Positions 25,749 through 43,654 of a stretch of 64,000 bases of DNA are shown piece by piece (position 1 is the stretch's first letter; each line of letters opens with the position of its first letter). Source of the DNA: Planctomycetota bacterium (lineage in GTDB: Bacteria; Planctomycetota; GCA-002687715; CAIWVZ01); contig JBGANV010000001.1 in the NCBI GenBank assembly GCA_044222185.1, positions 288,001-352,000 of the forward strand, in the 5' to 3' direction. The position numbers and the translations under genes were made by a program. The notes beneath the pieces were generated by a model. It was not told the DNA's origin, did no database searches, and saw only the letters and a list, made by a program, of their open reading frames with translations.

Positions 25749-26593
<845 letters not shown>

Positions 26594-27404: not shown

Positions 27405-28325
27405 TCACAGGATCTTGCGGGCGCGTCGGACCATCCAGTCGTCGTCCCAGTCACGGTTCTGACGGGAGACGAGCAGGTAGACCGTCTTGTTGCGCAAGAC
27501 GAGCACGACGTCGCACGTGGAGCATTGATCGATGCGGATCTCGTGCGCCTTGTCCTGCTGGATGGTCTTCAGCTTGGGGATCTGCTTCTCGGCCAGCGAC
27601 GTCGGAATGGCGTAGAACGCGATCTCGCGATCACCGTAGTCGACGAGCGCTTGAGGGATCCAGGTGTCGTTCCACTTGAGCACTTCGCCGCCGACGAACT
27701 CGCCGCCGTCGAGCAGCCCCTGGGGAAGCTCGAACCCGGCACCGAGCTGGTCTTGGACCTGCTTCGTGAAACCGTCGAGGTCGACGAGCTTGCGATCCGG
27801 GAGGTCCTGCGTCGCGAGGTTCGCACGCGTCAGCGTCACGCTCGGGTCCAACCCCTTCACCAGTTCGTCATAGCGGGCTCCGACGAATGCAACGAGCGGC
27901 CCGTGGACCGAGTGATCGTGGGTTCGCTCCTTGTGATCACGCCCCGGCTGCGGGGTCGCGGCCACGAAGGTCGGCGTCTGGCCCGGGTTCCGTGGCGTGG
28001 CGTTCGTTTCCCGCGAATCGAGCGAGATCGCGAAGAGGATGGCCGCAGCCGCGGCGGTGATGCCCGCGGGGATCAGCCAGCGCGAGACGCGGCTGCGCCA
28101 GATCGCGCGCCGCAGTTCCCTTCGGAAGCGCGACGCCGAGGCCTCAGGGCAACGGTCTTTCACGAGCCGTGCGCGGACCGACGTCCACATGCGGCTCTCC
28201 GAGTTGACGATCGCCTGGCACGCCGAGCACGCGTTCAGGTGCTCGAGCACCGCCACGTTGTCCTTGACGGACAACTCGTCGTCGAGGAACGGGTCCAGGT
28301 GAGTTCGGCAGGTCTGGCAGTTCAC
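27405..28325 (-). CDS. Zinc-finger (zf-HC2) transmembrane anti-sigma factor
   Basis: MNCQTC..DDELS..EHLNACSAC (HxxxCxxC), one TM helix, extracytoplasmic domain; coupled to the ECF gene. Confidence 0.85.
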   Translation of the reverse strand: MNCQTCRTHLDPFLDDELSVKDNVAVLEHLNACSACQAIVNSESRMWTSVRARLVKDRCPEASASRFRRELRRAIWRSRVSRWLIPAGITAAAAAILFAISLDSRETNATPRNPGQTPTFVAATPQPGRDHKERTHDHSVHGPLVAFVGARYDELVKGLDPSVTLTRANLATQDLPDRKLVDLDGFTKQVQDQLGAGFELPQGLLDGGEFVGGEVLKWNDTWIPQALVDYGDREIAFYAIPTSLAEKQIPKLKTIQQDKAHEIRIDQCSTCDVVLVLRNKTVYLLVSRQNRDWDDDWMVRRARKIL

Positions 28326-28909
28326 GAGGCTCTCTTTTCGGTCCGGTTCGCGTCGGTCGGGTACCCGTGATGGCGCGCGAACGACGCCAATCGGTCCTGC
28401 AGCATCCTTCGACTTCGGAAGAGGCGCGACATGACGGTGCCGAGGGGACAGTCCATCACTTCCGCGATCTCCCGGTACTTGAGTCCCTCGATCGTGGACA
28501 GCATGAAGACCATGCGGAGCTCGGCGGGGAGCTCCTCGATGGCGAGCTTGATGCGGTCGTCCACGGCTTCGAGTACCGCCTTTTCACGCTCGGCGAGGGT
28601 GGGGCGGTTCAGTTCGGCTTCCAGCGACTCCGGCGCTTCGATCTCGGGGATCGACTCGATCTCGCAGCCGGCGACGTGGCGCTCTCGGGTCATGCTCACG
28701 AACACCGTGTAGAGCACCCGGAAGATCCAGGCCTTGAAGTTCGTGCCCGGGGAAAACGACCCGAAGAAGCGAAACCCCTTCAGGAGCGTCTCCTGGACCA
28801 GATCGTCCGCCACGTTGGCGTCCTTCGTCAGGCGCACTGCCGTGCGATGGAGCGCATCGAGGTTCGGCTCGATTTCGCGTTGGAATACGTCTGGCTGGGC
28901 TCGGGGCAT
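28322..28909 (-). CDS. ECF RNA polymerase sigma factor
   Basis: ADDLVQET..NFKAWIFRV region 2; EGLKYREIAEVMDCPLGTVMSRLFRSR region 4. Confidence 0.92.
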   Translation of the reverse strand: MPRAQPDVFQREIEPNLDALHRTAVRLTKDANVADDLVQETLLKGFRFFGSFSPGTNFKAWIFRVLYTVFVSMTRERHVAGCEIESIPEIEAPESLEAELNRPTLAEREKAVLEAVDDRIKLAIEELPAELRMVFMLSTIEGLKYREIAEVMDCPLGTVMSRLFRSRRMLQDRLASFARHHGYPTDANRTEKRAS

Positions 28910-29160
28910 CGACTGGTCACCGGCGGGGCGCGCCTCAAGGCTCAGCGATGCTAACGCTGCGATGCGACCCGGTATTCACCTCCGTGCTCCGGCAGGGAGC
29001 GGCCGCCTCGACTGAATAATGAGTCGCGCTCGGGCGTTCGTCAGAGCCGATTCGGGCTTCGGGCCTCGTCAGTCCTCGGGCGCGAGCCGGTCGTAGACGC
29101 CGGATGAAAAATCCATAGACTGTCGCCCCTCGAAACCACCCACCTCCCGGAGGCGCGTTG

Positions 29161-30726
29161 ATGCTGCGAGGAATACCCCGAGTGCTCGAACTGGCCCTGG
29201 CTGTGGCGGTGCTGGTGCCGTCGGCGCTCGGCCAGGAAGCGGCGCTCGTTCTCCGAGGTGCGAAGGTCCATGCGAAGCCCGGGGTCGTCCTCGAAAACGC
29301 CGATGTCCTCGTCGAGCACGGCCTGATCAAGGGCGTGGGCGAGAAGCTGACCGTCCCCGAGGGTGCGACGATCGTGGACCTCGCCGGCCAGGACCTGTGG
29401 CCCGCCTTCATCGATCCGTTGAACGACGCCTTGCTCGAGCCTGATCACCGTGCGCGCGGCACGTTCGGGCCGGCGGATCGGACGGTGGACGCCTACGACC
29501 CGTTCCGCGCCACCGACAACACCGCCATGCTCCGGGCCGGAGTGGGCGCCGTCGGACTTGGCACCTGGCCCCAGGGCATTCGTGGCGGCGTGATCTCCGT
29601 GCTGGAGGTCGCCGAGGCGCCGGGTGAACCCGCCTTTCTTGGGAAGGACCAGATCGTGCTCGCGGAGATGGGGACGCAGGGACGGGACGAGCCGGCCGCT
29701 CCGGACGGCATGCCCCGTGGTCGCGGCCGACGCCCGCAGTTCCAGGACTTCCCGTTCCAGGGCGCGCCCGCGCTTCTTTCGACGTCCCTCGTGACGCGCG
29801 AGGCGCAGGCCCGCGCCGTCGACGAACTCGTCGAGGGCGGACGCCGCTACAAGGAAGCGTGGGAGAAATACGAGAAGGACTTCGAGGAGTACAAGAAGAA
29901 GCTCGAGGAGTGGGAGAAGTCCAAGGGGACGGGTTCTCGACCAGCGAGCCGGCCCGCGCCGTCGGACACCGAGTCCAAGCCGCCCGAGCGCCCGACCGGG
30001 CAGGGATTCCCGCCCGACTTCCGCAACTGGCCCCGTGAGAAGCGCCAGCAATGGCTGCGCGAAAACATGGGACGGGCCCCGGCGGAGGGGGCGCGTCCCA
30101 CGGCGGACACGTCGTCGGCGCCATCCACCGACGGCAAGCCGAAGCCACCAGAGAAGCCCCGAACGGAGCCCGCGAAGGACGCGCTGATCGCGGTGCTCAA
30201 GCGCGAGCGTCCACTCTGGGTTGCCGCGCATTGGGTGCAGGACATCGAGGCCGCGCTCGACCTCGCCAAGGCGAAGAAGATCCGGATTGCTCTGATGGGC
30301 GCCTCGGAGGCGTGGCGCGCCCTCGATCGTGTGAAGAAGGAGCACGTCACCGTGCTTCTGCGGTCACCCGGCGTAGCGGATGCGGACTCGCTCGATCGCA
30401 TCGCCGAGCCTGATGATCTCTGCGCCCGCTTGAGTCGCGCCGGTGTTCCCGTGGCGTTCTGCACGGCGGGCGACTCCCGGGTGGGCGCGGCGGGCGCGGC
30501 ACTCGCGGCGGCAACGGGGATCGGACGCGGCATGAGCGAAGACGCGGCGCTGGCCGCCGTCACGGTCAACGCTGCGCGCGTGCTCGGTCTCGAGAAGAAA
30601 CTCGGAACGATCGAAGTCGGCAAGACGGCGAACCTCTTCGCAACGCACGGTTCACCGTTCGCGCCGTCGGCCTCCGCGACGACGACGGTCAGCGGCGGGA
30701 AGCTGCGCTCGTGGGAGACGAAGTGA
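29161..30726 (+). CDS. Secreted amidohydrolase-family paralogue 1 (metal HxH absent)
   Basis: GGAGG RBS; signal peptide; PAFIDPLN in place of PGxIDxHxH; C-terminal GTIEVGKTANL. Confidence 0.8.
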   Translation: MLRGIPRVLELALAVAVLVPSALGQEAALVLRGAKVHAKPGVVLENADVLVEHGLIKGVGEKLTVPEGATIVDLAGQDLWPAFIDPLNDALLEPDHRARGTFGPADRTVDAYDPFRATDNTAMLRAGVGAVGLGTWPQGIRGGVISVLEVAEAPGEPAFLGKDQIVLAEMGTQGRDEPAAPDGMPRGRGRRPQFQDFPFQGAPALLSTSLVTREAQARAVDELVEGGRRYKEAWEKYEKDFEEYKKKLEEWEKSKGTGSRPASRPAPSDTESKPPERPTGQGFPPDFRNWPREKRQQWLRENMGRAPAEGARPTADTSSAPSTDGKPKPPEKPRTEPAKDALIAVLKRERPLWVAAHWVQDIEAALDLAKAKKIRIALMGASEAWRALDRVKKEHVTVLLRSPGVADADSLDRIAEPDDLCARLSRAGVPVAFCTAGDSRVGAAGAALAAATGIGRGMSEDAALAAVTVNAARVLGLEKKLGTIEVGKTANLFATHGSPFAPSASATTTVSGGKLRSWETK

Positions 30727-30727
30727 A

Positions 30728-31873
30728 ATGAATTCCGCCACCAGGCTGCTCTGCATCGCGGCCACACTCGCGGCAGCGGTCGCCGCGCAGGATCCATCCG
30801 GAGGAGGCTCGTCGCTCGTCATCCGCGCCGCGTCGATCCACACGCTCGCTGGTGAGGCCATCCGTGACGGGCAGGTCGTGATCTCCGACGGCAAGGTTCT
30901 CGCCGTCGGACCGAGAACGGACGGCCGATCCTCCGGTGAGACGATCGAACTGGGAAACGCAGTCGTCTATCCGGGGTTCATCGATGCCGCGTCGACCGTG
31001 GCGATCCGTCGTGAACGCGACGACACGACCCGCGCGTGGCAGCCCGCATTGCGGATGGCCGAGGCCTTCGACCCGGGTCACCCGTATTTCGCCGAGGCGC
31101 TGGCGTTTGGCGTGACGTGCGTCCACCTCGTTCCCGGCGACAAGAACGTCCTCGGTGGGCAGTCGGCCGTCGTGAAGGTCTCCACTGCGGGGAACCGCGC
31201 CCGCGTGCTCGCGCCGGACACTGGTCTGAAGGTGAGCCTGTGCGAGGCCGAGTACGCCGACGGTCGGGCTCCCACGTCCCTTGCCGGGGCCCTGTCGGGC
31301 CTGCGAAAGCCTGAGGCCGATGCTGCGGCGATCGTCGATCGATTCCGCGACGGCAAGCGGCCCGTGTTCGTCTCCGCACGCACCGATCGCGAATGGGCCG
31401 TCGCGACCGGGCTGAAGTCGATGTTCGGCTTCCGGACGATCCTCTGCGCCGACTCTGCCTGCGGCCGCTTCGTCGGCTCGTTCCAGAACTCCATCGGCGG
31501 CGTCGTGATCGATCCCGTGGGCGCCTCGCTCCGAACGTTCGAGCGCGACGCGCTCCAGGGGCTCGCCCGCTCGGAACTGCCTCTCGCGTTCGGATCGTTC
31601 GGTTCGGGTGCGGGCGCGTCGGCGGTCCGAAGCTCGGCCGTCAATGCGTTCCGTGGTGGCGTGGCCGAGGAGCGGATCCTGCGCTCGCTCACGATGGACG
31701 CCGCGCGCATCCTCGGCGTCGCGACGCGCGTCGGCTCGCTCGAGAAGGGCAAGGACGGTGATCTCGTCGCACTGTCGGCCCCGGTGACGGATCCACGGGC
31801 GCGCGTCCTGCTCGTCGTGCAGGACGGGATCGTCGTCCACCGAGAGGCGAAGACCGGAGAGAAGGCTCGATGA
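30728..31873 (+). CDS. Secreted amidohydrolase-family paralogue 2 (metal HxH absent)
   Basis: Signal peptide; PGFIDAAST; GSLEKGKDGDL. Confidence 0.8.
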   Translation: MNSATRLLCIAATLAAAVAAQDPSGGGSSLVIRAASIHTLAGEAIRDGQVVISDGKVLAVGPRTDGRSSGETIELGNAVVYPGFIDAASTVAIRRERDDTTRAWQPALRMAEAFDPGHPYFAEALAFGVTCVHLVPGDKNVLGGQSAVVKVSTAGNRARVLAPDTGLKVSLCEAEYADGRAPTSLAGALSGLRKPEADAAAIVDRFRDGKRPVFVSARTDREWAVATGLKSMFGFRTILCADSACGRFVGSFQNSIGGVVIDPVGASLRTFERDALQGLARSELPLAFGSFGSGAGASAVRSSAVNAFRGGVAEERILRSLTMDAARILGVATRVGSLEKGKDGDLVALSAPVTDPRARVLLVVQDGIVVHREAKTGEKAR

Positions 31874-33177
31874 CACCCATCCTCGCCGTCCTGCTGTTCG
31901 TTCTCGGGCTGCCGCCGGCCGCGCGTCCAGACGTCGTCGTCATCCACGCGGCAAAGCTCTACGTCGGCGACGGGAAGGTCCTTTCACCTGCCGTCGTCGT
32001 CGTCACGGGCGGGAAGATCACGTTCGTCGGTGGCCAGGCCCCGGGGGACCTATCGGGTGCGCGACACGTCCGGATCACGGATGCGGTCGTGACCCCCGGC
32101 TTCATCGAAAGCGCATCCACCGTCGGCCTTCCGGGCGGCCTCTCCGAGAACGAGGAAGCGACTGAAGTCACTCCGTCGATCCGCGTCGCGCCCCTGCTCA
32201 ACCCGCGGGACGAGGGCTTCCGCCGCCTCCGGGAAGTGGGCGTGACGACGGCCGTCGTCTGTCCCGGCAACCGGAACGTGATCGGCGGCATCGACGCGCT
32301 CGTGAAGACGAAGGACTCGCATGTGGCGGCCGACCTCGTGGTGAAGCCCGAGGTGGCGTTGCACGCGGTGATGTCGTCCGAGCCCGCGTCAGGCAATTCG
32401 TCCGCGCGGTTCGGCGGCATCGGGCTCTTCACGCGCCGGCCCAACTCCCGCATGGGGGTCGTGTTCGAGCTGCGACACGCATTCCTCGACGGCACGATCC
32501 GCGGGCAGAAGGGTGCGCCCTCGTGGACTCGTTTCGACGACGACGAGGGCAACGTGATGATGTCGACGATCCGCGGCGAGCTGCCGGTGGAGATCGTCGC
32601 GCACAATCAGAACGAGATCCTCACGGCCCTGCACATCACGGACGAGTTCCGCGTGCCGAAGTTCTACCTGCAGGGCGGCGTGGAGGCGTACGTGCTGCGT
32701 GACCTGTTGGCGCGTCGAGGCGTCCCCGTGTTCATCGGCCCGATCTATCACCGCTCGCAGGTGCCGCTGGGCGTCTTCATCAGCCGTCACCAGGGCACCG
32801 GGGGCCAGGTCGATGGGGCTCCGTTGTTCACGGAGAACGGCGGCGAAGTCGGCGCCCCGAGGATGTTGAAGGACGCGGGCGTGAAATTCGCGTTCTCGTG
32901 TGGAACGAGCGCAGCCGGCGCGACGCTGCGTGACTACGCCTCGGCCGCGAGCCGGGCCGGCCTCCCGGAAGGCGATGCGATCGCCGCACTCACCGGATGG
33001 GCCGCGTCGATCCTCGGAGTCGCCGACCGTGTCGGCACGATCGCTCCAGGCAAGGACGCGGATCTGAACGTTTACTCGGGCGACCCGCTCTCGCCGGCGT
33101 CCCGATTGGAACTCGTGTTGATCGACGGTGCCGTGGTGTTCCGTGCGCCGGAAACGACGGCCAAGACGAAGGAGTGA
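31870..33177 (+). CDS. Secreted amidohydrolase-family paralogue 3 (metal HxH absent)
   Basis: Signal peptide; PGFIESAST; PNSRMG; GTIAPGKDADL. Confidence 0.82.
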   Translation: MTPILAVLLFVLGLPPAARPDVVVIHAAKLYVGDGKVLSPAVVVVTGGKITFVGGQAPGDLSGARHVRITDAVVTPGFIESASTVGLPGGLSENEEATEVTPSIRVAPLLNPRDEGFRRLREVGVTTAVVCPGNRNVIGGIDALVKTKDSHVAADLVVKPEVALHAVMSSEPASGNSSARFGGIGLFTRRPNSRMGVVFELRHAFLDGTIRGQKGAPSWTRFDDDEGNVMMSTIRGELPVEIVAHNQNEILTALHITDEFRVPKFYLQGGVEAYVLRDLLARRGVPVFIGPIYHRSQVPLGVFISRHQGTGGQVDGAPLFTENGGEVGAPRMLKDAGVKFAFSCGTSAAGATLRDYASAASRAGLPEGDAIAALTGWAASILGVADRVGTIAPGKDADLNVYSGDPLSPASRLELVLIDGAVVFRAPETTAKTKE

Positions 33178-33181
33178 TGAC

Positions 33182-34423
33182 GTGATCCGAAAGATCGCCC
33201 TGATCGGGTTCTGCCTGGCCGCCTCCATGGCCGCACAGGACCTCCTGGTGAAGAACGCCAAGCTCATCACGTGCACCGGGCCGGAATCGGCCACGCCCGT
33301 CGACGTTCGCGTCGAGAACGGGCGGATCACGAAGATCGAAGCCGCGATAAAGGCTCCCGCACGCACGCCGACGATCGATGCGAAGGGCAAGGTCGTGATG
33401 CCGGCGTTCGTCATGGCGCACACGTCGGAAGGCGTCGATCGCCCGAACGAGGTGATGGACGTCGTCCCCTTCGTCTCCGTGCTCGACTCCATCGATCCCA
33501 CGCGGCCGTTCTTCGACGACTGTCTGCGGGACGGCGTCTACACGATCAACATCATGCCGGCGGATCGCACGGTGATCGGCGGCATGGGCCGGATCCTCAG
33601 GCCGTTCGGGCGCGTCGTCGAGGACATGACGATCGTCCCCGACGCCGGGCTCAAGCTCTCCATGATTCCGCCGAGCGGCAACAGGGCTGCGCACATGGCG
33701 AAGCTACGCGCGGCGCTCGAGGACGCGCGGCGCTACCTCGATGGCAAGCAGCGCGACGCGGCCGAGTCCAAGCCGACGGGCAACGTCCAGTTCGACCTCG
33801 AGGCCATGTCGATCGAGCGTCGCAAGATGGCGTTGTCCCGCGTCCTGAAGAAGGAGCTTCCGACGTACGTGAGCTGCCAGGAGGCCGGCGACGTCTGGCG
33901 GGCGCTCTCGCTCGCGCAGGAATTCGACATCGACGTGCGATTGGTCCTCTGGCCCCAGTCCTGGCGCGCGGCGGCCATGGTCGCGAAGGCCAAGGTCCCC
34001 GTGATCCTCGCGCCGGACTTCGAGTCGGAGGAGATGGACCCGGATTCGGGCAAGATGACGACGCACATCCTTCCGAAGATCCTGTTCGATGCAGGCGTCG
34101 AGTTCTCCGTGACCGCGCGGCCATCGAACCTCGGCCAGCGTTACCTCTGGTACCAGGCGGCGTCACTGGTTCGCTACGGGATCCCGCGCGACGTGGCGCT
34201 GAAGTCCGTGACACTCACGGCGGCGAAGAACCTGGGCCTCGCCAAGTCCAAGGGTTCGCTCGAGGCGGGGAAGGACGCCGACCTGATCGTGTTGACGGCC
34301 GATCCTCTTTCCGGCGCGGCGTGGGTCGAAACGGGCGTCATCGAAGGTCGCGTCGTCTACGAGCGGCGCGCGGACAAGCACCTGGCGGAAGTCCTCGGCG
34401 TCGGCGGGACGGAAAAGAACTGA
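33182..34423 (+). CDS. Secreted amidohydrolase-family paralogue 4 (single His)
   Basis: GTG start after GGAG; signal peptide; PAFVMAHTS; GSLEAGKDADL. Confidence 0.8.
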   Translation: MIRKIALIGFCLAASMAAQDLLVKNAKLITCTGPESATPVDVRVENGRITKIEAAIKAPARTPTIDAKGKVVMPAFVMAHTSEGVDRPNEVMDVVPFVSVLDSIDPTRPFFDDCLRDGVYTINIMPADRTVIGGMGRILRPFGRVVEDMTIVPDAGLKLSMIPPSGNRAAHMAKLRAALEDARRYLDGKQRDAAESKPTGNVQFDLEAMSIERRKMALSRVLKKELPTYVSCQEAGDVWRALSLAQEFDIDVRLVLWPQSWRAAAMVAKAKVPVILAPDFESEEMDPDSGKMTTHILPKILFDAGVEFSVTARPSNLGQRYLWYQAASLVRYGIPRDVALKSVTLTAAKNLGLAKSKGSLEAGKDADLIVLTADPLSGAAWVETGVIEGRVVYERRADKHLAEVLGVGGTEKN

Positions 34424-34424
34424 A

Positions 34425-37262
34425 ATGAAGCGTGTGATCCTGGCGCTCTTCGCAACGGTCACGGGCTTCGTGTCGGCCCAGGACGCTGCCCCAGCGACGA
34501 TGGTGATCAAGGCCGGCGCGGTCTGGCTCGCGCCCGACCGGGTTCAGACCAACGCCGCCATCGTGATCGAGAAGGGGACGATCACGTCCATCGGCCCGTC
34601 GGCGACGGTAGCCGTACCCGCCGGAGCCGAAGTGATCGACCTGCCGCAGGGGACGGTCACCGCATCGCTCGTCCTCGCGCACCTGCGCCCGGCGGGCGTG
34701 CAAGCCGACCCGACGGCGATGGTCACGCCGACGGCGATCGCGGCGGACGCGTTCGACCCGTTCGTCCCGCAGCCCGCCCTGACGCGCGGCGGCATCGGGA
34801 TCGCCTACCTCAGCCCGGGCGCCGAGCGGCTCGTGACCGGTCAAGGCTCGGTGGTCCGGATCGGCGTCCTCGATCCGGCCACGGCGGTGATCACACGGCG
34901 CGCGTCCCTCCGCTGCAACGTCGGCGAGGGGCCGCGTTCCACGCCGTCCATCTTCAAGCCTCCCGTGCTGCCGGGACCCGACGATCCGTTCAAGCCGACG
35001 GAGCCGCAGGGGCCGAAGACACGCGCAGCCGCCATCGCCGGCCTGCGTTCCCTGTTCACGAAGGCGCAAGCTGAACGGAAATCGCCGCAGGCCCCGGCCG
35101 AGGACGACGTCGATCTGCGCCCGTTCATCGACGCGCTCGAGGGCAAGCTCGTCGTGCGCGTCGCCGCTGACCGCGAGGCGGACATCACGCGCGTGATCGA
35201 CCTCGCCCGCGAGTTCAAGCTCAAGCTCGTGATCGAGGGCGGCAACGAGGCAGGCGCCGTCGCTGCGCAGTTGAAGGACATCGACGCGGCCGTCGTGCTT
35301 CGGGTTACCGATCTGGCTCCCGTGGGCCGGTCGGACCTGGCGCCCATGTTCCGCGCAGCGGGAGAGGGCGACCCGACGACGCCGCGCCGGCTCGCAGCCG
35401 CGGGCGTTCGATTCGCGATCATCCCGCCCACGGACGCCGAGGCCTCGAACCTGGCACTCTGGGCAGCGAAGACGGTCGCCTGGGGACTCGGTCCGCAGGA
35501 CGCGTTCGCCGCGATCACCACCCGCGCCGCGGAGGTGATCGGGGCCGACAAGGCCGTCGGTTCATTGGCTCCGAACCGCGTCGCCGACCTCGTCGCATGG
35601 CCGGGGAGCCCGTTCGACGTCACCGCCAGACCGAGGCTCGTCCTGGCACAGGGACGCCTGACGCACCGCGCGAAGTCGCGAGACGACCTCGTGGCCATCA
35701 CGGCACGGCGGATCCACACGTGCAACGGCGACGCCATCGACAATGCGACGATCGTCGTCGATCAGGGCAAGATCCGCAGCGTCGGGCGCGACGTCGCCAT
35801 TCCCCCGGATGCGAGGCGCTTCGTCTACCCGGATGCCGTGATCGTTCCCGGGTTCGTCGATGGCGGTACGCAGGTCGGTATCCGCGGATACCAGCTGATC
35901 TCCGACGACGCCATCGAGCCCACACCGCCGCTCGGAGCGCTCGGGCTCGAGCAGTTCCCGTCGAAGTACTTCGACGTCGAACTGCCGTCCGTGCGCGCCG
36001 CCGCTGCGGCCGGAGTCACGACCGTCGCGTTGTCCCCGGGCCTCGGTCGACTCACGGCTGGCACCGTCTCCGTCGTGAAGACGAGCGGTGCACGCGCTGA
36101 CCGGCTGTCGAAGATCGGCGGCGTCCTGTTCGACATGCGGGCGCTCGCGCCGGGTGAGTCCACCCGAAAGCAGATCGACTCCGTTCTCGAGAGCGGCAAG
36201 AAGTACCACGAGTCCTGGGTTGCCTACGAGAAGGCTCTCGACGAGTGGAAGAAGGGCAAGAAGCCGGACGACAAGCAGGATCGCGTCGTCGGGGCCGTGA
36301 AGGCGCCACGTCCGCGTGACCCCGTGAGCGGCTCCTGGTCGGGCAACGTCCGCGTTTCGATCATCCCGCGGCCGATTCCGTTTTCGATGACGCTGAAGCT
36401 GGACGGGACGAAGGTCACGGGCAGCATCACGTCGCAGATGTCACGCGGGCGCAGCGTGGACTTCTCCGGTCATTTCCAGGACGGGCAGCTGTCGGCGGAA
36501 TTCGACACGGAGAACCAGCACATCACGATCACGGCGACGGTCGGGCGCGACTCCATGAGCGGGTCGGCGCGGCTCGGCGAGGGAATCGAGGCCACGTTCG
36601 ATGCGACCCGCACCGAGGGTGGCGGCGAAGCGGACTCCGACAAGCCGGCGGACGACAAGTCGAAGGACGACAAGAAGAGCGACAAGGACGACGGCCGTCC
36701 CAAGCCACCGGCCAAGGTCGAGGCGCAGGAACCCTTCCGCGAGATCTTCGCGGATCGTGCGTCGGCGTTCGTCGCGGTCGTGGACGATCAGATCGTCGAC
36801 GCCGTCATCGACGTCTTCCGCACGAAGTACGACGTCCGCGTCGTGATCGTGACGACGCAGGACATCCGGCACTTCGCCGGACGCCTCGGTGCGGCCGGGG
36901 TGGCACTCGCGCCGACTGCCGCGTCGATTCGCGAAGAGGAGGGCGTCCTCATCAACCCGGCCCTCATCGGCGTCCAGGCCAAGATGCCCGTGCTCTTCCG
37001 CTCCGGCCCCGACGGGGACTCGAGAACGCTCTACCGCATCGCCGAGATGGCCGTTCGCGACGGCGTCGACCCGGAAGATGCCCTTCGAATGATCACTCGA
37101 CAGCCCGCACGGTTCCTGGGAATGCTCGATCGCGTCGGAAGTCTCGAGCGCGGCAAGGACGCGGATCTCGTGATCCTCTCCGGAGAGCCATTCAATGGAA
37201 CCACGCGCGTCACGCGCGTGATGGTCGACGGTCGATTTGTTGACGAGGAGACGACGAAATGA
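34425..37262 (+). CDS. Secreted tandem two-domain amidohydrolase-family paralogue 5 with beta-rich insert
   Basis: Signal peptide; domain A LVLAHLR..GSLAPNRVADL; domain B PGFVDGGT..GSLERGKDADL; neither has HxH. Confidence 0.82.
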   Translation: MKRVILALFATVTGFVSAQDAAPATMVIKAGAVWLAPDRVQTNAAIVIEKGTITSIGPSATVAVPAGAEVIDLPQGTVTASLVLAHLRPAGVQADPTAMVTPTAIAADAFDPFVPQPALTRGGIGIAYLSPGAERLVTGQGSVVRIGVLDPATAVITRRASLRCNVGEGPRSTPSIFKPPVLPGPDDPFKPTEPQGPKTRAAAIAGLRSLFTKAQAERKSPQAPAEDDVDLRPFIDALEGKLVVRVAADREADITRVIDLAREFKLKLVIEGGNEAGAVAAQLKDIDAAVVLRVTDLAPVGRSDLAPMFRAAGEGDPTTPRRLAAAGVRFAIIPPTDAEASNLALWAAKTVAWGLGPQDAFAAITTRAAEVIGADKAVGSLAPNRVADLVAWPGSPFDVTARPRLVLAQGRLTHRAKSRDDLVAITARRIHTCNGDAIDNATIVVDQGKIRSVGRDVAIPPDARRFVYPDAVIVPGFVDGGTQVGIRGYQLISDDAIEPTPPLGALGLEQFPSKYFDVELPSVRAAAAAGVTTVALSPGLGRLTAGTVSVVKTSGARADRLSKIGGVLFDMRALAPGESTRKQIDSVLESGKKYHESWVAYEKALDEWKKGKKPDDKQDRVVGAVKAPRPRDPVSGSWSGNVRVSIIPRPIPFSMTLKLDGTKVTGSITSQMSRGRSVDFSGHFQDGQLSAEFDTENQHITITATVGRDSMSGSARLGEGIEATFDATRTEGGGEADSDKPADDKSKDDKKSDKDDGRPKPPAKVEAQEPFREIFADRASAFVAVVDDQIVDAVIDVFRTKYDVRVVIVTTQDIRHFAGRLGAAGVALAPTAASIREEEGVLINPALIGVQAKMPVLFRSGPDGDSRTLYRIAEMAVRDGVDPEDALRMITRQPARFLGMLDRVGSLERGKDADLVILSGEPFNGTTRVTRVMVDGRFVDEETTK

Positions 37263-38512
37263 TCCGTTTGCGTTCCTGTCTCCTGGCAGTCTTCGCGCTG
37301 CTCGTACCGAGCGTCGCACAGGAGTCGCGCAACGCGACGCCGAACGACGCCTGGCGCGCGATCGTGCACGGGCGCGTTCTTCCCGTCACGTCGGCGCCCA
37401 TCGACGACGGCGTCGTCCTCATCCACGGCAAGAAGATCGCGGCGGTCGGGGCCTTCGGCTCGGTCGAGATACCCGCGGGCGCGGAGATCATCGACGCGAC
37501 GAACCACCTCGTGGTGCCGGGCTTCATCGAGATGCACAACCACACGGGCATCTCCGACGCGCACGACATCGTGTTCCAGGTGAACCCGGAACTCCGCGTC
37601 GTGGACAACATCCAGTTCCGCACGGGTGAGATGAAGACCGCCGTCGCGGGCGGAATGACCACACTCATGGCGATCCCCGGGTCCGGCACCAACATGGGCG
37701 GATTCGGCGTCGTCATGAAGACTTGGGGTCGCACGCCGGAGGACGTCATCGTCCGCTTCCCCGGATCGTTGAAGATCGCGCAGGCCGGCAACCCGGAGCG
37801 GTTCGGCGGTGAGGTGGGCGCGGGCCGCATGGGCATGAACTGGCTCATCCGCAACGTGCTGATCGAAGGCCGCGAATACAACCGCGCGTGGGAGCGATAC
37901 GAGAAGGGCGAGACGAAGACCGCGCCGGAGAAGAACCTCCGCTACGAGATGCTCCGCGGGCTGTTCCGGAAGGAGTACCCGATCACGGTGCACACGCAGT
38001 GGTTCCAGGTCGTCCAGTCGACGATCCGGATCCTCAAGCGCGAGCTGAACCTCGACCCGGTCGTCGATCACGGCGAGTGGGAGGGGTACATGAACACGCC
38101 GGAGCTGCACGAGCTGGGGATCCAGGTCGCTGCTGGTCCGCGCGGGTACGACTACGATCGCCGGCAGGCGCGGTTCATCGGAATTCCAGCGGCCTATTAC
38201 TGGCGCGGCATCGACGAGGATTCGATCGGTGTCAACACCGACGCGCCGGTCGTTCCGCAGGAAGAGCTGCCCTATCAGGTGAGCATGGCGATCCGGCTGG
38301 GGCTGCCCGAGGACGTGGCGTTGAAGTCGGTGACGATCAACCCCGCCCGGATGCTCAAGCTCGAGAAGCGCATCGGCAGCCTCGAGCCCGGCAAGGACGC
38401 GGACGTTTGCGTCTGGACCGGCGACCCGTTCGACCCCAGGCATCGCACACAGGTGGTGATCATCGATGGAGACGTGGCCTATGACGCGGCGCGCGATGGC
38501 ATCCGCTTCTGA
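37259..38512 (+). CDS. Secreted amidohydrolase-family paralogue 6 (metal-binding site intact)
   Basis: Signal peptide; PGFIEMHNH, LKIAQAGNP (candidate bridging Lys), ITVH, VDHGE, NTDAP, GSLEPGKDADV. Confidence 0.88.
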   Translation: MIRLRSCLLAVFALLVPSVAQESRNATPNDAWRAIVHGRVLPVTSAPIDDGVVLIHGKKIAAVGAFGSVEIPAGAEIIDATNHLVVPGFIEMHNHTGISDAHDIVFQVNPELRVVDNIQFRTGEMKTAVAGGMTTLMAIPGSGTNMGGFGVVMKTWGRTPEDVIVRFPGSLKIAQAGNPERFGGEVGAGRMGMNWLIRNVLIEGREYNRAWERYEKGETKTAPEKNLRYEMLRGLFRKEYPITVHTQWFQVVQSTIRILKRELNLDPVVDHGEWEGYMNTPELHELGIQVAAGPRGYDYDRRQARFIGIPAAYYWRGIDEDSIGVNTDAPVVPQEELPYQVSMAIRLGLPEDVALKSVTINPARMLKLEKRIGSLEPGKDADVCVWTGDPFDPRHRTQVVIIDGDVAYDAARDGIRF

Positions 38513-39785
38513 TCGGTGGCGGCATGTCGCCGTCGCACTCTGCATGCTCGCGGGCTCGGCGCTCGTCGCCCAGGACGCCGTCAGGCCGACGGCGATTCGG
38601 GTACATCGTGCCCTGACCGTATCCGGCGCGCCCATCGAGGACGCGACGATCGTCATCGAAGACGGCAAGATCACGGCCATCGGCAAGAGCGCCGACGTGA
38701 CCGTTCCGGAGGACGCGGAGGTCCTGGAGGCCGACGTGGCCACTCCGGGATTCATCCACCCGTTCTCGACCGCCTTCGTGGCGCAACAGAACTACGACGT
38801 CAACGGGAAGAACAGCAACGGAGATCGCTTCGTTGCCGACGATCTCCGACCGAACTGGGACGGAGTGAAGGCCCTGGCGCGTGCGGGCTTCACGCGGCTG
38901 AACGTCGTCACCTCGGACGGGGGGATCGCGCCGACGAGCGTTCTCATCAAGACGATCGCAAAGCAGGATCGGCCGATCCGCCCTGAGATGATCATCGTGC
39001 AGCGCCGCTCGGCGCTGATCGCGGGCTTCGAGCCGCGAACGAGCACGAAGGCATTCTGGAAGGACTTGCTGCCCAAGGCGAAGAAGGCCAAGGAAGGCCG
39101 CGCGGCGGCGCCCAAGGGTGAGGCAGAGAAGCCCGCGTCGTCCGCCACCGAGTCCAAGCCCGGCGCGGAATCGAAGCCGGGAGATGCGAGTCGCCCGGCG
39201 TCCCGTCCGGCGGCGGCTCCGCCCGACGCCAAGCTGGTCCCGCTCGTCGACTACCTCGACGGCAAGCTGCCGGCGATCCTTTCGCTACAGGGCGCTGGGG
39301 CGGTGATGCACCTTCAAGCGATCCTGAAGGAGAACGCGGAGTTTCGGCCCACGCTCTTCTTCTTCGGCGAGGACGCGTGGCGAGTCGTCGACCGGGTGAA
39401 GGAACTCGGGATGCCGGTCATCCTCCCGACGGCGCTTCGAGACAAGCCGGACACGATCATCGAAGTGGTTCCGCCGCGCGAATTCCTCGATGCCGGCGTA
39501 GCCGTCGCGCTCGTCCCGGAGAACGGTTTCCAGCAGGAGTACACGGGCTTCGCATTCCACGTCGGCGAACTCGTCCGCCGCGGAGTGGACCCGGCGCAGG
39601 CGCTGCGCGCCGTGACGCTGACCCCCGCCGAGATCCTTGGGATCCAGTCTGAGGTCGGGTCGCTGGAGAAGGGCAAGGCGGGCGACGTCCTGCTTTGGAC
39701 CGGCGCGCCGTTCGAGCCGACGTCCAGGCTGCTGCGGGTGGTCGTGGGCGGCGAGACGGTCCTCGATGTGAGCAAGGAGCAGTGA
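38481..39785 (+). CDS. Secreted amidohydrolase-family paralogue 7 (metal HxH absent)
   Basis: Signal peptide (start could be 38496); PGFIHPFST; GSLEKGKAGDV. Confidence 0.8.
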   Translation: MTRRAMASASDRWRHVAVALCMLAGSALVAQDAVRPTAIRVHRALTVSGAPIEDATIVIEDGKITAIGKSADVTVPEDAEVLEADVATPGFIHPFSTAFVAQQNYDVNGKNSNGDRFVADDLRPNWDGVKALARAGFTRLNVVTSDGGIAPTSVLIKTIAKQDRPIRPEMIIVQRRSALIAGFEPRTSTKAFWKDLLPKAKKAKEGRAAAPKGEAEKPASSATESKPGAESKPGDASRPASRPAAAPPDAKLVPLVDYLDGKLPAILSLQGAGAVMHLQAILKENAEFRPTLFFFGEDAWRVVDRVKELGMPVILPTALRDKPDTIIEVVPPREFLDAGVAVALVPENGFQQEYTGFAFHVGELVRRGVDPAQALRAVTLTPAEILGIQSEVGSLEKGKAGDVLLWTGAPFEPTSRLLRVVVGGETVLDVSKEQ

Positions 39786-41302
39786 TGCGTCGCTTCGTCA
39801 TGATCAGCGCGCTACTTCTCGCGGCTGCGGCCAGCGCCGTTGCGCAGGTTCCGGACTCGCGGCCGGAGTCGCGTCCGGGGTCCCGTCCCGTGATCGGCGA
39901 CCAGCGCGACGGCGGCGGCGAGCCGACCTCGCGCCCGCGCGGCGGCCGGCGGCGCCCAGGTGGCGGCCAGCCCATCGGGGCGGAATCGCGCGCGGCGCGT
40001 GACCTCGCCCAATCGGAAACCCGTCCGGACTCTCGCGCCGAATCGAAGCCCGCGGAGAGCCCGTTCATCGCCTTCGTCAACGGCACCATCCACCAGGTGA
40101 GTGGTCCCGTAATCCGCCAGGGCACGGTGCTCGTGAAGGATGACAAGATCATCCAGGTCGGGCGGAACGTACAGATTCCAGACGGCGCGCGCATCGTCGA
40201 CGTCAACGACAAACACGTCGCACCGGGGTTCGTCGCGTTGCGGTCCAGCGGGACGTTCGGTGGCGGCTTCGCGCCGCGCGGCGAGCAGGAGAAGCTCTCG
40301 GATCAGGCCGACCCGTTCAGCCAGAGCATGCTGATGGCCGTCGCGCACGGGATCACGACCGCGTGCGAGGGAGGTAACGGCTCTCCCGTCGGGCAGGTCG
40401 GTGGGTTCATCGGCAAGCACGCGTACGGAAGCGTCGACGGCATGTACCTCCGCGATCCCGCGGCGGTCTTCCTCACCTATGGTCAGGGCAGCATCTCGGA
40501 TCGGATGCAGACTCGCGACATCCTGAAGAAGGCGGTCGAGTACCGACAGAAGCGCAACGCTTACGTCGCCGAGGTCATGGGCGGAAAGAAGGATGCGAAG
40601 GCTCCGACCGGCGACGAGGGCGCGAAGTTGTTCCTCCGCGTCATGGACGGCGAGCTCCCATGCTTCGTGAATGCATCGACCGGACCGGAGCTGCAGGCGA
40701 TTGCCGACCTCGCCACCGAGTTCGAGCTTCCCATGGTTGTGCTCGACGGTCGCGAGGCGTGGACGATGACGGATCGGCTGGCTCGAGCGCCGCTCAGCTT
40801 CATCCTGTCGCCGCGCGTCCGCGGGCCAGCCGGTCCGGCCGGCAACGAGGCGCGGGACTTCACGGAGAAGCCCAGCGGGTGGAGCATCACCAACGCGGCC
40901 GTGCTCGAGCGCGCCGGCATCCCGTGGGGGATTCAGGCCCTTTCCGGATTCGTCGGCACGGGCGGGTTGCCCGGGCGCGATCTCATGCAGCTCAACATGG
41001 ACGCGGCGTTCGCCATCCGGGGTGGCGCCAGTGATGCGATGGCGCTGCGGGCCATCACGTTGTCGGCCGCCGAGATCCTCAAGATCCAGGACCGGGTCGG
41101 GAGCCTGTCGCCCGGAAAGGACGCCGACATCGTCGTCTTCGACCTCGAACCACTCGACTACCGCGCGTTCGCCGAGCGCGTCTACGTGAACGGCAAGCTC
41201 GTCTACGAGAAGGACAAGGTGTCGCTCTTCAACCACATCCAGACGGACCGCTCGAAGGGTCTGAAGGGTCAGTGGTGGAACGAGCGCCTGGACCAGAAAT
41301 AG
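39785..41302 (+). CDS. Secreted amidohydrolase-family paralogue 8 (metal HxH absent)
   Basis: AGGAG RBS, TGATG overlap; signal peptide; SRP-rich N-terminus; PGFVALRSS; GSLSPGKDADI. Confidence 0.8.
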   Translation: MRRFVMISALLLAAAASAVAQVPDSRPESRPGSRPVIGDQRDGGGEPTSRPRGGRRRPGGGQPIGAESRAARDLAQSETRPDSRAESKPAESPFIAFVNGTIHQVSGPVIRQGTVLVKDDKIIQVGRNVQIPDGARIVDVNDKHVAPGFVALRSSGTFGGGFAPRGEQEKLSDQADPFSQSMLMAVAHGITTACEGGNGSPVGQVGGFIGKHAYGSVDGMYLRDPAAVFLTYGQGSISDRMQTRDILKKAVEYRQKRNAYVAEVMGGKKDAKAPTGDEGAKLFLRVMDGELPCFVNASTGPELQAIADLATEFELPMVVLDGREAWTMTDRLARAPLSFILSPRVRGPAGPAGNEARDFTEKPSGWSITNAAVLERAGIPWGIQALSGFVGTGGLPGRDLMQLNMDAAFAIRGGASDAMALRAITLSAAEILKIQDRVGSLSPGKDADIVVFDLEPLDYRAFAERVYVNGKLVYEKDKVSLFNHIQTDRSKGLKGQWWNERLDQK

Positions 41303-41313
41303 CGCGTACCGCC

Positions 41314-41597
41314 GGAGCGCCGCGTTTCACGCGGCCGGATGGCAGGGCTCCGCCCTGCCGGGAACGGCGACGGGCATCGAGCGGTTGCAGGGCGACGGGC
41401 CGGCGACACTCGCGGCCGGGCTGAAGCCCTGCCGAACCGGCTACGCTGGAGCGCCGCGTTTCACGCGGCCGGATGGCAGGGCTCTGCCCTGCCGGGAACG
41501 GCGACGGGCATCGAGTGGTTGCAGGGCGACGGGGCCGGCGACACTCGCGGCCGGGCTGGGGCCCGGCCGAACCGGCCACGCTGGAGCGTGGCGCTCC
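41314..41597. repeat. Tandem ~134-135 bp palindromic (REP/BIME-like) repeat: two full copies plus the start of a third
   Basis: GGAGCGCCGCGTTTCACGCGGC begins at 41314 and 41448, with GGAGCG again at 41583; internal hairpins GCCGCG-TTTCA-CGCGGC, GCAGGGC-TCC-GCCCTGC, GCCGGGC-TGGG-GCCCGGC. Confidence 0.85.
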
Positions 41598-41749
41598 GGG
41601 GTGTCAGCGGGAGGCGATCCGTCGACCGCGCAATGGCGATAGGGCGCAGCGGCGATCTCGTTCGTATCCTTCGGCGGCGCCGGCCCGTCCGGCGTCGGGT
41701 CTGACTGGGCTCGGATGGGAACCTCCGCGCCGCAACCGGAGAGCTCGTG

Positions 41750-43654
41750 ATGGATACGACCGAGAAGATCGATCCGGCGGCCGTCAGCGGCGCTGGCGGG
41801 TCCGGGCCGCTTGGCGCGTTCGTCGGGGCCATGCTCATCCTGGGCATCGTCGCCCTCGCCATGCTGCCAGGCCTCGGCGCCCGCGACTTCTGGCCGCCAG
41901 ACGAAGCCCGCTACGGCGAGGTCGCACGCGAGATGTGGGCCGGCGGTGATCCCGCGGTGCCGCATTTGAACGGCACGGTCTACTACGACAAACCGCCAGG
42001 CTACTTCTGGGCGGTGCTCGGGGCCGCACGCATCCACGGTGCGCTCGATGAGTGGGCCGCGCGGCTGCCCTCCGTCGCGGGCGCTGCGCTGATGGCGCTC
42101 TCGGTGTTCTGGATGCTCGGTCCTCGCACATCGTTCGGTACGGCGATGATGGGCGCCCTGGTCTCGCTCGGGAGCGTTTCCGTCGTATGGCAGGGGAGGT
42201 CGTCGCAGCTCGACTGCCTCTTCGCCGGGCTGATTTCGATGGGGATGGCTGCGTTCTTTCGCGCGGCCGACCGCCAACGCCCGAAGGCCGTGATGCTCGG
42301 GTTCTTCCTCTGCGGGCTCTCGGTCCTCGTCAAGGGACCTCTGTGCCTGGTGATGATGGTTGGCGGATTCCTCGGCGCCCTCTGCTGCCGGCGGGGCCGC
42401 ATGATCTTCAATCGCTGGTTCGTCGTCGGCTTCGTCCTCTTCCTGCTCCCGACGACGGCGTGGTTCGGCTGGGCATGGCTCGATCTCGACCGCGCCCGTC
42501 CGGGCTCCGGCCTCGACTACATCCAGACGTTGATCGACACCCAGGTGCTCGGCCGCATCAACGTCGCCCGCGCGAGCGAGAGGCCCTGGCATTGGTACAT
42601 CAGCGACGGCTTCCCGAAGGTCGCGGCGCCGTTCTTCCTCTTGCCGCTTGGACTGCTGTTCCCGAGCGCCCGGTATGCGCTGTCCGCGGGTGCGCGACGC
42701 TTGTCCTGGTTCGCACTCGGGTGGTTCGTCGTCTCGTTCGTCGCCCAGTCGTACTTCCCGGGCAAGCGCGTGAATTACCTCGTGCCGTTGATGCCGGCCG
42801 TCGCCATCCTCGCTGCTGTCGGCGTCCACGGCGTCGTGACGGCCTGGCCTCGCGCCGGGTTCCGGCTGCTCGCGACGATCTGCGGGATCCTCGGGGTCGT
42901 CGTGACGGCTGCGGGGCTTCTGCTCGCGGCGAACGTCGACGACTCGGTTGCGGCTCAGTTCCGCGACCGCGCCGAGCCGGTGATCGAGCGGCGCGCCGAG
43001 AAGATCGTGAAGGACGAGCAGGACGACGAGTCGGATGCGCCGAATGGGTCCGACTCCGCGCCCGCGTCACGTTCCTACGGGTACACCGCGCCCGAAAGCC
43101 GGCCATCGTCCCAACTCGCAAGAGAGATGATTGCTGCCTTGGATTGGAACGCCCTCCGCCACGGCTTGACGCTCGCCGGGATCGTGATCCTCGCCCTCGG
43201 GATCGCATCTCTGGCGACACTCGCGAGTGGGGCGCTGCGAGCCTCCGTCGCGTGGCTCGCACTCGCCGTCGCCGTCGGCGGTGGGCTTGCGCTCGGCTAC
43301 GTGTTCCCCCTGCTCGATCCCCTCGTGTCACACCAGCCGGCCGCGCTCGCCATTCGCGAGGCTCTTCAACGCCATCCCGCGGATGCGCCTGTCGGATTCT
43401 TCCGACATCTCGACGAGGCTTTTCCTTTCTACATGGCCCGTCCCGCGCCCGAGATCGCATCGGTCCGCGAACCGTGGACGACCGCACAAATCCGCGAAGA
43501 GGCACGCCGCTTCTTGATGCAGCGGGGAAGTCTCCTCATCGTGCGCGGCGACAAGCTTGCGGAGTTCGGACTTCGTGAGTTCGCCTCCGGCCGAATCGTC
43601 GGTCCCCTGCGCGCCGGAGGGAAACAGTTCTTCGCACTCGAAGGTCCTCCTTGA
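41750..43654 (+). CDS. ArnT/PMT-like (GT-C) lipid-linked-sugar transferase
   Basis: PDEARYGEVAREM, YYDKPP, ARLPS, VKGP, KRVNYLVP; many TM segments. Confidence 0.87.
   Translation: MDTTEKIDPAAVSGAGGSGPLGAFVGAMLILGIVALAMLPGLGARDFWPPDEARYGEVAREMWAGGDPAVPHLNGTVYYDKPPGYFWAVLGAARIHGALDEWAARLPSVAGAALMALSVFWMLGPRTSFGTAMMGALVSLGSVSVVWQGRSSQLDCLFAGLISMGMAAFFRAADRQRPKAVMLGFFLCGLSVLVKGPLCLVMMVGGFLGALCCRRGRMIFNRWFVVGFVLFLLPTTAWFGWAWLDLDRARPGSGLDYIQTLIDTQVLGRINVARASERPWHWYISDGFPKVAAPFFLLPLGLLFPSARYALSAGARRLSWFALGWFVVSFVAQSYFPGKRVNYLVPLMPAVAILAAVGVHGVVTAWPRAGFRLLATICGILGVVVTAAGLLLAANVDDSVAAQFRDRAEPVIERRAEKIVKDEQDDESDAPNGSDSAPASRSYGYTAPESRPSSQLAREMIAALDWNALRHGLTLAGIVILALGIASLATLASGALRASVAWLALAVAVGGGLALGYVFPLLDPLVSHQPAALAIREALQRHPADAPVGFFRHLDEAFPFYMARPAPEIASVREPWTTAQIREEARRFLMQRGSLLIVRGDKLAEFGLREFASGRIVGPLRAGGKQFFALEGPP

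Follow-up and report, generated by a model that had tools for sequence, protein, structure and literature searches.

A conserved operon of predicted exported amidohydrolase-fold paralogues with one complete metal site, a candidate hetero-oligomer

What might a bacterium build from eight adjacent genes that all encode amidohydrolase-fold proteins with export signals, when a single one of their nine domains carries a complete set of metal ligands? The question is raised by an operon at 29158-41302 (+) of a 64,000-nucleotide stretch of DNA from a Planctomycetota bacterium (the window; G000:C1:288001-352000), part of a genome of 7.08 Mb in 16 contigs. An earlier note, made from the letters alone, had proposed that the operon encodes an exported assembly in which inactive subunits surround one catalytic subunit. 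We find that the exact set and order of the domains is kept in three phyla, which makes it probable that the products form a machine of several parts. Our preferred interpretation, to which we give slightly better than even chances, is a hetero-oligomer centred on a single catalytic subunit.

Operon layout, fold and export signals

The operon consists of eight open reading frames (ORFs) with high third-position guanine-plus-cytosine (GC) content, named A1-A8, that encode nine domains. They are given below with the first-strand metal motif of each domain and, where available, the support of its clade in the tree described further on.

A1: 29158-30726, +, predicted exported, inactive amidohydrolase-fold paralogue, IDPLN; position 1 in other loci too
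A2: 30728-31873, +, predicted exported, inactive paralogue, IDAAS; clade support 99
A3: 31870-33177, +, predicted exported, inactive paralogue, IESAS; clade support 98
A4: 33182-34423, +, predicted exported, inactive paralogue, VMAHT; GTG start inside the ORF 33128-34423; clade support 99
A5: 34425-37262, +, two-domain protein, split near residue 418
A5n: 34425-35675, +, first, inactive domain of A5, VLAHL; clade support 100
A5c: 35676-37262, +, second, inactive domain of A5, VDGGT; carries an inserted β-barrel and an acidic/basic linker
A6: 37259-38512, +, sole catalytically complete subunit by ligand residues, IEMHNH
A7: 38496-39785, +, predicted exported, inactive paralogue, IHPFS; alternative start at 38466
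A8: 39785-41302, +, predicted exported, inactive paralogue, VALRS; clade support 100

The GC content is ~0.68 throughout the window and the operon shows no compositional break. A1 starts at 29158, the 29161 of the earlier note being its second codon, an ATG. From A1 to A8 the intergenic gaps are +1, -4, +4, +1, -4, -17 and -1 nucleotides, and most internal starts are preceded by purine-rich stretches resembling Shine-Dalgarno sequences. Since the gaps run from -17 to +4 nucleotides and no terminator-like site is found on the + strand within the operon, co-transcription of the genes is probable and translational coupling possible. The description of eight consecutive, tightly packed genes on one strand is thus borne out; the nine first-strand motifs read exactly as the earlier note listed them, and the GxLExGKxAD-type motif that it had placed in all nine domains is present nine times.

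Family models recognise these proteins only at their edges. All eight exceed the Pfam cut-off of 25 bits for Amidohydro_1 (35.8-75.6 bits), with matches spanning only the C-terminal 60-100 residues that form the β-sandwich part; Pfam and NCBIfam together recognise only the N- and C-terminal ends of the composite β-sandwich, leaving the barrel unmatched. All NCBIfam scores are far under their cut-offs. NF051886 (Xaa-Pro dipeptidase/Cc2672-like carboxypeptidase; cut-off 500 bits) is not reached by A6 (65.0 bits), the two-domain A5 (90.4 bits) or the others (37-50 bits), nor is the isoaspartyl dipeptidase model TIGR01975 (331 bits), for which the only protein among the listed matches is A8 at 26.3 bits.

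Among solved structures the closest relative is 3OOQ, a Thermotoga maritima MSB8 amidohydrolase deposited as a structural-genomics entry whose title gives no function. A6 matches it over residues 38-406 (E = 7.5e-51; next-best PDB match 6.8e-8), and it is likewise the best PDB match of A4 (E = 1.3e-33; next-best 3.3e-7). A8 matches it with E = 1.3e-27 (next-best PDB match 5e-7) and a profile of A7 orthologues with E = 3.1e-53 (next-best 6.9e-21). The alignments of A6, A4 and A8 with 3OOQ are almost full length. An AlphaFold2 (AF2) model of both A5 domains has a mean predicted local distance difference test score (pLDDT) of 80.6 and a predicted TM-score (pTM) of 0.52, and in Foldseek it matches the 3ooq chains with E = 6e-27 and TMt 0.85, against TMt of at most 0.61 for the other listed entries. 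The (β/α)8 barrel with composite β-sandwich is therefore seen in A5 by model and in A6, A4 and A8 by alignment to 3OOQ; A1-A3 are tied to the set through full-length BLAST alignments to their paralogues, not through individual 3OOQ searches. As judged from these alignments and the model, all domains tested descend from a 3OOQ-type ancestor, because the 3OOQ match lies far above that of every other solved amidohydrolase. Isoaspartyl dipeptidase, which the earlier note gave as an example of a homo-octameric member of the superfamily, is not the nearest structural precedent: PDB entries of this enzyme match A6 with E = 1.9e-4 and TIGR01975 is far under its cut-off, whereas the nearest structure is the 3OOQ homomer. 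The paralogues share ~22-30% identity with each other.

A5c differs from a plain amidohydrolase domain by an insert between barrel strands 4 and 5 that comprises a small domain and a linker. The small domain (36306-36638, +; A5 residues 628-738) is modelled by AF2 as an avidin/calycin-like, 8-stranded up-and-down β-barrel (pLDDT 90.3, pTM 0.80). By VIA-align it resembles designed barrels, avidins and the Cap15 nucleotide receptor (Z of 13.6-11) as well as the peptide receptor Gid4 (Z of 10.5), so that the modelled fold suggests binding. Neither this barrel nor its counterpart in a second locus of the same genome (L023, described below) matches any Pfam family, even at E up to 10. Small β-barrels are also present in fused relatives, for example P0045, P0053, P0105, P0116 and P0134.

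In all eight proteins the N terminus opens with a charged stretch and continues into a hydrophobic run (12-mer Kyte-Doolittle maximum of 2.3-2.9 within the first 25 residues), and an Ala-rich site comes after the hydrophobic core. Judged by eye and by this hydropathy heuristic, every product has the charged region, hydrophobic core and small-residue cleavage site of a Sec-exported protein, as expected from the signal peptide that the earlier note assigned to each gene. Its word 'secreted' goes further than these export-type N termini, and 'exported' is the better wording for what they predict. In six of the eight (A2, A4, A5, A6, A7 and A8) the site closes with A-Q and the next residue is D, E or V; the mature forms of these six may thus have an N-terminal Gln, which could become pyroglutamate.

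Several of the proteins also contain low-complexity segments. A1 has a Pro/Ser/Lys insert at residues 254-341 (29917-30180), A5c a Lys/Asp-rich acidic/basic linker (36615-36734), A7 an insert at 39084-39233, and A8 an N-terminal 'SRP'-rich tether after its signal peptide (39848-40063). Repeated 'SRP' and 'SKP' units recur in the Pro/Ser/Lys/Arg-rich segments of A1, A7 and A8. The segments of A1, A5c and A7 share one insertion point in the barrel; that of A8 is N-terminal.

Metal ligands, conserved order and maintenance

A binuclear site in this fold is expected to consist of HxH on strand 1, Lys on strand 4, His on strand 5, His on strand 6 and Asp on strand 8. A6 has all of them: H93/H95 (37535-37543), K172 (37772-37774), H245 (37991-37993), H271 (38069-38071) and D328 (38240-38242). 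We defined the ligand columns on A6 and read them in an alignment of 185 domains. The six residues are H, H, K, H, H and D in all 29 members of the A6 clade, and they are also invariant in a separate 22-row alignment of A6 orthologues. The other eight clades lack the full set, and the residues at the ligand columns vary within each of them; the alignment of the barrel between paralogues is approximate, though the contrast between A6 and the rest is large.

Fragments of the site persist in places. The first His of HxH is present in 12 of the 19 members of the A4 clade and the strand-4 Lys in 15 of the 19, and the A7 clade has one invariant His, H272. In A5c, the family-wide alignment shows His at both columns of HxH for 8 of 22 members, and the alignment of the clade itself a full HxH for 5 of 22. 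The A5c of the window lacks the motif, and the five members that have it lack the His residues of strands 5 and 6 and the Asp of strand 8. To this extent the earlier note needs correction: a relic HxH of A5c survives in some other lineages, in which the remaining ligands are gone. Polar columns conserved to at least 90% number 26 in A6 and 2-18 elsewhere (18 in A8, 14 in A4), and the conserved columns of A1, A2 and A7 are nearly all occupied by Gly, Pro or hydrophobic residues. In the non-A6 clades, neither the ligand columns nor the conserved polar residues reveal another conserved metal site. The claim that 37259-38512 alone has HxH plus Lys, His, His and Asp stands, extended now to all 29 orthologues; the mapping that the earlier note called for yields one complete site, with no substitute residues conserved at those columns in the other clades.

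A6 shares 57-72% identity with its orthologues in family f3 and in its own family, and ~40% with those in family f2; the named relatives are mostly metagenome-assembled genome records labelled Planctomycetota. We read the loci from the DNA around these orthologues and assigned their ORFs by BLAST to the nine domains of the window. The order A1-A2-A3-A4-A5n-A5c-A6-A7-A8 is complete in the window and in 15 further loci (L012, L013, L014, L016, L017, L018, L019, L020, L022, L029, L030, L031, L033, L036 and L038), and the covered parts of six partial loci (L011, L015, L021, L032, L034 and L035) follow it. An apparent swap of A7 and A6 in L022 proved to be an artefact of ORF calling. The order is shared by 13 further Planctomycetota loci (L040-L052), where the best match at a few of the A2, A5c and A7 positions in L043, L045, L049, L051 and L052 is another paralogue.

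The operon order is found in Planctomycetota, Aminicenantes and Gemmatimonadota. In the two Aminicenantes records, L029 and L031, A5n and A5c are separate, overlapping genes. The Gemmatimonadota chromosome (L035) has only A4-A8 at this locus, with A2-like and A3-like genes ~1.4 Mb away. Most loci have nine domains. Those with A6 doubled (L021, L030, L038, L041, L049 and L050) have 10 and those with A6 tripled (L020 and L036) have 11; A6, the sole active paralogue by its ligands, is the only one seen duplicated in these loci, in tandem. Every A6 copy keeps its ligands in the 185-domain alignment, which covers loci other than L041, L049 and L050.

In a FastTree phylogeny of the 185 domains, grouped by operon position and built without L023, L037, L039 and ORFs shorter than 200 residues, seven of the nine positional groups are monophyletic, with support of at least 98 for A2, A3, A4, A5n, A6 and A8 and of 90 for A7. 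A1 and A5c each need two changes, and their Aminicenantes members group with each other. Altogether the tree requires nine changes against a minimum of eight; the mean after shuffling is 132. Each paralogue was asked in the earlier note to form its own orthologue clade with conserved order in other genomes, and this is what is seen: one clade for seven of the nine positions, in an order kept across three phyla.

The paralogues also occur together. Of 201 Planctomycetota genomes sampled, 57 have a match to A4 and 52 a match to A8 at E of 1e-30 or better; 50 genomes have both, nine have one alone and 142 have neither. These counts are rough, as the weakest matches are partly between different paralogues and the genomes are related.

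The inactive copies are maintained. Since the nearest genomes share just 38-70% protein identity, we used differences between strains as a proxy in place of the ratio of non-synonymous to synonymous rates (dN/dS) between orthologues. Contigs from four metagenome runs covering 29100-41400 gave 40 listed single-letter differences, with 18 others beyond these, and 17 of the 40 were dropped as three tight clusters inside A6 that probably come from related organisms. Of the 23 isolated differences that are left, 21 are in the seven genes without an active domain, and 17 of these are synonymous and four non-synonymous, where 26% would be expected to be synonymous (binomial p = 2e-7). Both isolated differences in A6 are non-synonymous. 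Depth was low, so part of the differences could be errors; these, however, would have no preference for synonymous sites. The dN/dS check proposed in the earlier note was thus carried out in a weaker form, from single-nucleotide polymorphisms (SNPs) between strains, and within that form it points to purifying selection on the inactive copies. A4 is the most conserved among them. This synonymous excess, together with frames that stay open at 25-60% identity across phyla, shows that the inactive copies are maintained. DNA near-identical to 31500-41400 is present in activated-sludge, sludge and bioreactor metagenomes from seven studies; the listed matches to this stretch include no RNA data set.

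Fusions and neighbouring genes

Neighbouring domains of the operon are repeatedly found in one reading frame. A5n and A5c are fused by a linker of ~7 residues in Planctomycetota and Gemmatimonadota and split in Aminicenantes. In L052, A7 and A8 form one frame of 892 residues in which A8 lacks a signal peptide and its low-complexity N terminus serves as the linker; P0043 also fuses A7 to A8.

A wider view comes from the relatives of A4 in a library of 1.84 billion proteins, in which the best 150 of 6,583 were examined; 204 representatives match A4 at E of 1e-30 or better. Among these, 86 have at least 780 and 40 at least 1,200 amino acids. A rough domain parse, in which 'E' denotes the presence of the HxH motif, gives 58 p, 40 pEp, 24 Ep, 17 pp, five pE and three E, with three unparsed. 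An HxH domain is thus fused to at least one HxH-less domain in 69 of the best 150, in proteins of 800-1,590 amino acids. Assigned by best BLAST clade, the multi-domain relatives comprise 10 A5n-A5c, four A1-A2, two A2-A3, four A1-A2-A3 and one A7-A8, mostly following the operon order.

The same family forms other systems in these genomes. A second, smaller one lies in the genome of the window itself (L023, G000:C1:1269538-1274068; L023 3539-8069). It starts with a 1,068-residue predicted exported protein in which an inactive domain and a β-barrel are joined through a low-complexity linker to an active domain (HxH, K, H, H and D by eye), followed by an inactive paralogue and then by a protein that resembles Ser/Thr kinases and has a long region of helical repeats. 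Many of the relatives searched have A6-like pairs in tandem, with ~30% identity to A6. The Aminicenantes genome that contains L029 (G215) has further tandem A3-like clusters, for example at C1:821167-824939, 2630430-2632548, 2642270-2643906 and 2845242-2847332, which suggests that this genome generally tends to carry multi-paralogue loci of the family.

Upstream, the operon is adjoined by two regulatory genes recognised by Pfam:

28322-28909, -, extracytoplasmic function (ECF) sigma factor, divergent from the operon
27405-28325, -, zf-HC2 anti-sigma factor, beside the ECF sigma gene

This pair is a possible regulator of the operon, although the association is not general: among the flanking ORFs of 15 related loci, an ECF sigma factor is near the operon also in L016, L018 and L019. 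Pfam searches of 52 selected from the 79 listed flanking ORFs of these 15 loci gave no generally conserved neighbour, and no flanking gene is therefore counted as part of the system. Peptidase genes (M28, S41, S9 and Asparaginase_2) are found, among the flanks scanned, only beside the Aminicenantes and Gemmatimonadota loci.

The operon is followed directly, at 41747-44502 (+), by genes for a glycosyl/mannosyltransferase of the PMT_2 type and for a GT2 glycosyltransferase. L013 likewise has a PMT_2 gene after the operon, and near the Gemmatimonadota locus (L035) is a gene for a TMEM260-like O-mannosyltransferase. These neighbours are a hint of glycosylation of exported proteins. Further away, 23798-25768 (-) encodes a 656-residue protein with a full-length match to Amidohydro_3 (E = 1.7e-102); as a member of a different subfamily on the opposite strand, it was rejected as part of the operon. 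At 15-5331 (+) lies a three-gene set of PrkA, DUF444 and SpoVR, a conserved stress module of the YeaG-YeaH-YcgB type.

A candidate assembly, its alternatives and known systems

The nearest solved relative offers a starting point for what the operon may form. The 3OOQ entry contains ten chains of one sequence, and a preprint benchmark of complexes of 10-30 chains lists it as a dihedral homomer (10.64898/2026.08.06.736029). Ten identical chains and a dihedral listing imply a D5 decamer. 3OOQ is like A6 in having the same set of ligands and in aligning through the stretch between strands 4 and 5. It is unlike the operon in being a homomer, where the operon has nine diverged domains with signal peptides, eight of them lacking the metal site; the operon in turn has extra inserts (the β-barrel and low-complexity linkers) that 3OOQ does not.

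Next-nearest by sequence and fold are the cog1228-type peptidases, which include the Cc2672 Arg/Lys carboxypeptidase (3MTW), the prolidases 3FEQ/3N2C and 3MKV, and the ochratoxin amidohydrolase ADH3 (8IHQ/8IHS). These entries have 8-32 chains and act, by their titles, on peptide or amide bonds; their similarity to the operon is limited to the sandwich ends (E ~1e-7), with a TM-score of ~0.6 to the A5 model. Because of these families and of the peptidase genes beside the Aminicenantes and Gemmatimonadota loci, our guess by analogy is that the substrate of A6 has an amide or peptide bond.

We propose that the operon encodes a conserved Sec-exported module composed solely of 3OOQ-type amidohydrolase paralogues. 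A6 has the full HxH/Lys/His/His/Asp site of a binuclear-metal hydrolase and would do the chemistry, probably by cleaving a peptide bond or another kind of amide bond, either in the periplasm or extracellularly. The eight remaining domains have lost the site, each being retained as its own ancient orthologue group under purifying selection, and all nine would co-assemble into a hetero-oligomer descended from a homo-oligomeric ancestor. The inactive domains may supply architecture and substrate recognition, for example through the avidin-like barrel of A5c; such a scaffold or substrate-receptor role is what we infer, as is any stoichiometry.

Pointing towards association are synteny, in-frame fusions of neighbours, co-occurrence, fusions of HxH with HxH-less domains, and the listing of 3OOQ as an oligomer. 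A complex prediction for mature A6 and A7 from 22-row alignments scored 0.00 against a mark of 0.32; controls being absent, it counts neither way. Several points weigh against assembly. What speaks for association is indirect (synteny, fusions and co-occurrence), and adjacent genes can also be fused when their products do no more than cooperate. Some fusions have long low-complexity linkers, which impose little geometry, and the clade labels of the distant fused proteins rest on modest BLAST margins. The A5 model (pTM 0.52) does not confidently predict the packing between its two domains. Tight linkage is not obligatory, because Gemmatimonadota splits the set, A4-A8 lying far from A2-A3. That 3OOQ is a decamer is read from a crystal entry and a benchmark listing, not from solution data, and loci of 9, 10 or 11 domains are a poor fit to a strict decamer.

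The last of these points leads us to reject a model with strictly ten positions. A looser form is conceivable but rather unlikely, in which an exported ring or cage derived from a 3OOQ-like decamer has its own paralogue at each position, one to three of them catalytic (A6). Were it correct, with the same reserve, at least three phyla would possess a proteasome- or CCT-style particle of amidohydrolase-fold subunits, in which the inactive subunits and the A5c barrel select or hold substrates.

The genes could instead encode a functionally coupled set that forms no stable complex, that is, independent exported proteins with binding, chaperone or regulatory functions, co-regulated with A6; examples would be ligand receptors of different specificities, or inhibitors. 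The lost sites vary freely, as expected if each pocket had been independently repurposed or abandoned, and every clade has retained a few conserved polar residues of its own (18 in A8, 14 in A4). The two Gemmatimonadota loci and the loosely modelled packing within A5 fit such independence as well. It sits poorly with a nine-position order strictly conserved across three phyla, with tight gene packing that includes overlaps, with repeated in-frame fusions of neighbours in operon order, with the frequency of HxH/HxH-less fusions in the family, and with a closest solved relative listed as a large homo-oligomer. We regard it as possible, if on the unlikely side. The operon might also make mainly a structural component of the envelope or surface, built from amidohydrolase-fold bricks, with the chemistry of A6 secondary (for example in self-maturation) and the low-complexity segments as tethers. 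That eight of the nine domains are inactive suits this idea, as do the long segments in A1, A5c, A7 and A8, the ECF sigma/anti-sigma pair that adjoins the operon here, with ECF sigma factors near it in three scanned loci, and the glycosyl- and mannosyltransferase genes downstream here and in L013. But those flanking genes are not conserved across loci, and A6 keeps six ligands and 26 conserved polar residues everywhere. Since the ligands are kept in every lineage and A6 is the copy that is duplicated, catalysis is arguably central, and we consider a mainly structural role improbable.

Some of the paralogues called inactive might still be enzymes that use non-canonical residues, making the operon a battery of hydrolases. 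The invariant H272 of A7, the partial retention of the first His and the Lys in A4 (12 and 15 of 19) and the HxH remnants in A5c (both His in 8 of 22, full motif in 5 of 22) could be read in this way. No clade other than that of A6 keeps more than a fragment of the site, however, with the other ligand columns variable, and A1, A2 and A7 conserve almost nothing but Gly, Pro and hydrophobic residues; we find a battery of this kind very improbable. As for recent tandem amplification or functionless, decaying copies, nothing beyond the tandem arrangement speaks for either, and we give them practically no credence: paralogues at ~22-30% identity, orthologues in other phyla, open frames and mostly synonymous SNPs refute both, in agreement with the earlier note's statement that the copies reflect neither recent amplification nor decay.

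A hetero-oligomer around A6 would have partial counterparts elsewhere. In Pseudomonas aeruginosa, aspartate transcarbamoylase (ATCase) forms a dodecamer with a pseudo-dihydroorotase, an inactive chain of amidohydrolase fold that is reported to be indispensable to its structure (PMC7053772). This dodecamer resembles the complex proposed here in placing such a chain within an active hetero-oligomer, which for the operon is a putative one. It differs in having an unrelated partner (ATCase) and one kind of pseudo-subunit, and in being cytoplasmic, where the operon proteins are all paralogues and predicted to be exported.

CRMP/DPYSL proteins form hetero-tetramers and share with the operon membership of the amidohydrolase superfamily, loss of catalysis and association between paralogues, the last of which is conjectural for the operon. 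They are described as dihydropyrimidinase-like pseudoenzymes (PMC4051505). They differ in acting in eukaryotic cytosolic signalling, in belonging to a different subfamily (PDB matches of ~1e-5 to 1e-10) and in having no catalytic member.

The concept itself is met in other folds. The 20S proteasome, CCT/TRiC and the mycobacterial Mce1A-F heterohexamer are paralogue-diversified assemblies, and the Mce proteins are encoded in one operon. A hetero-oligomeric bacterioferritin has been reported (PMC12867745) and belongs here too. These four match the concept in that the gene of a homo-oligomer was duplicated and each position came to have its own paralogue, some of them inactive. They differ in their unrelated folds, and in that assembly of the operon products is a proposal and the copy number of A6 varies.

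Pseudoenzyme partners of active paralogues are well documented in eukaryotic signalling; to our knowledge, bacterial examples are few. Full-text searches, supplementary files aside, found no description of this operon or of tandem active and inactive 3OOQ-type domains. If the proposal is true, the operon would be a clear natural case of a bacterial homo-oligomer turned into a hetero-oligomer of many paralogues with a single catalytic centre, and a tractable model for how such complexity arises and what inactive subunits contribute to it. The 3OOQ subfamily, so far uncharacterised, would gain a first lead to its function, as would the HxH/HxH-less fusions of metagenomes. Because activated sludge and bioreactors harbour organisms with this operon, an exported particle that degrades peptides or amides could matter for nitrogen turnover in these settings.

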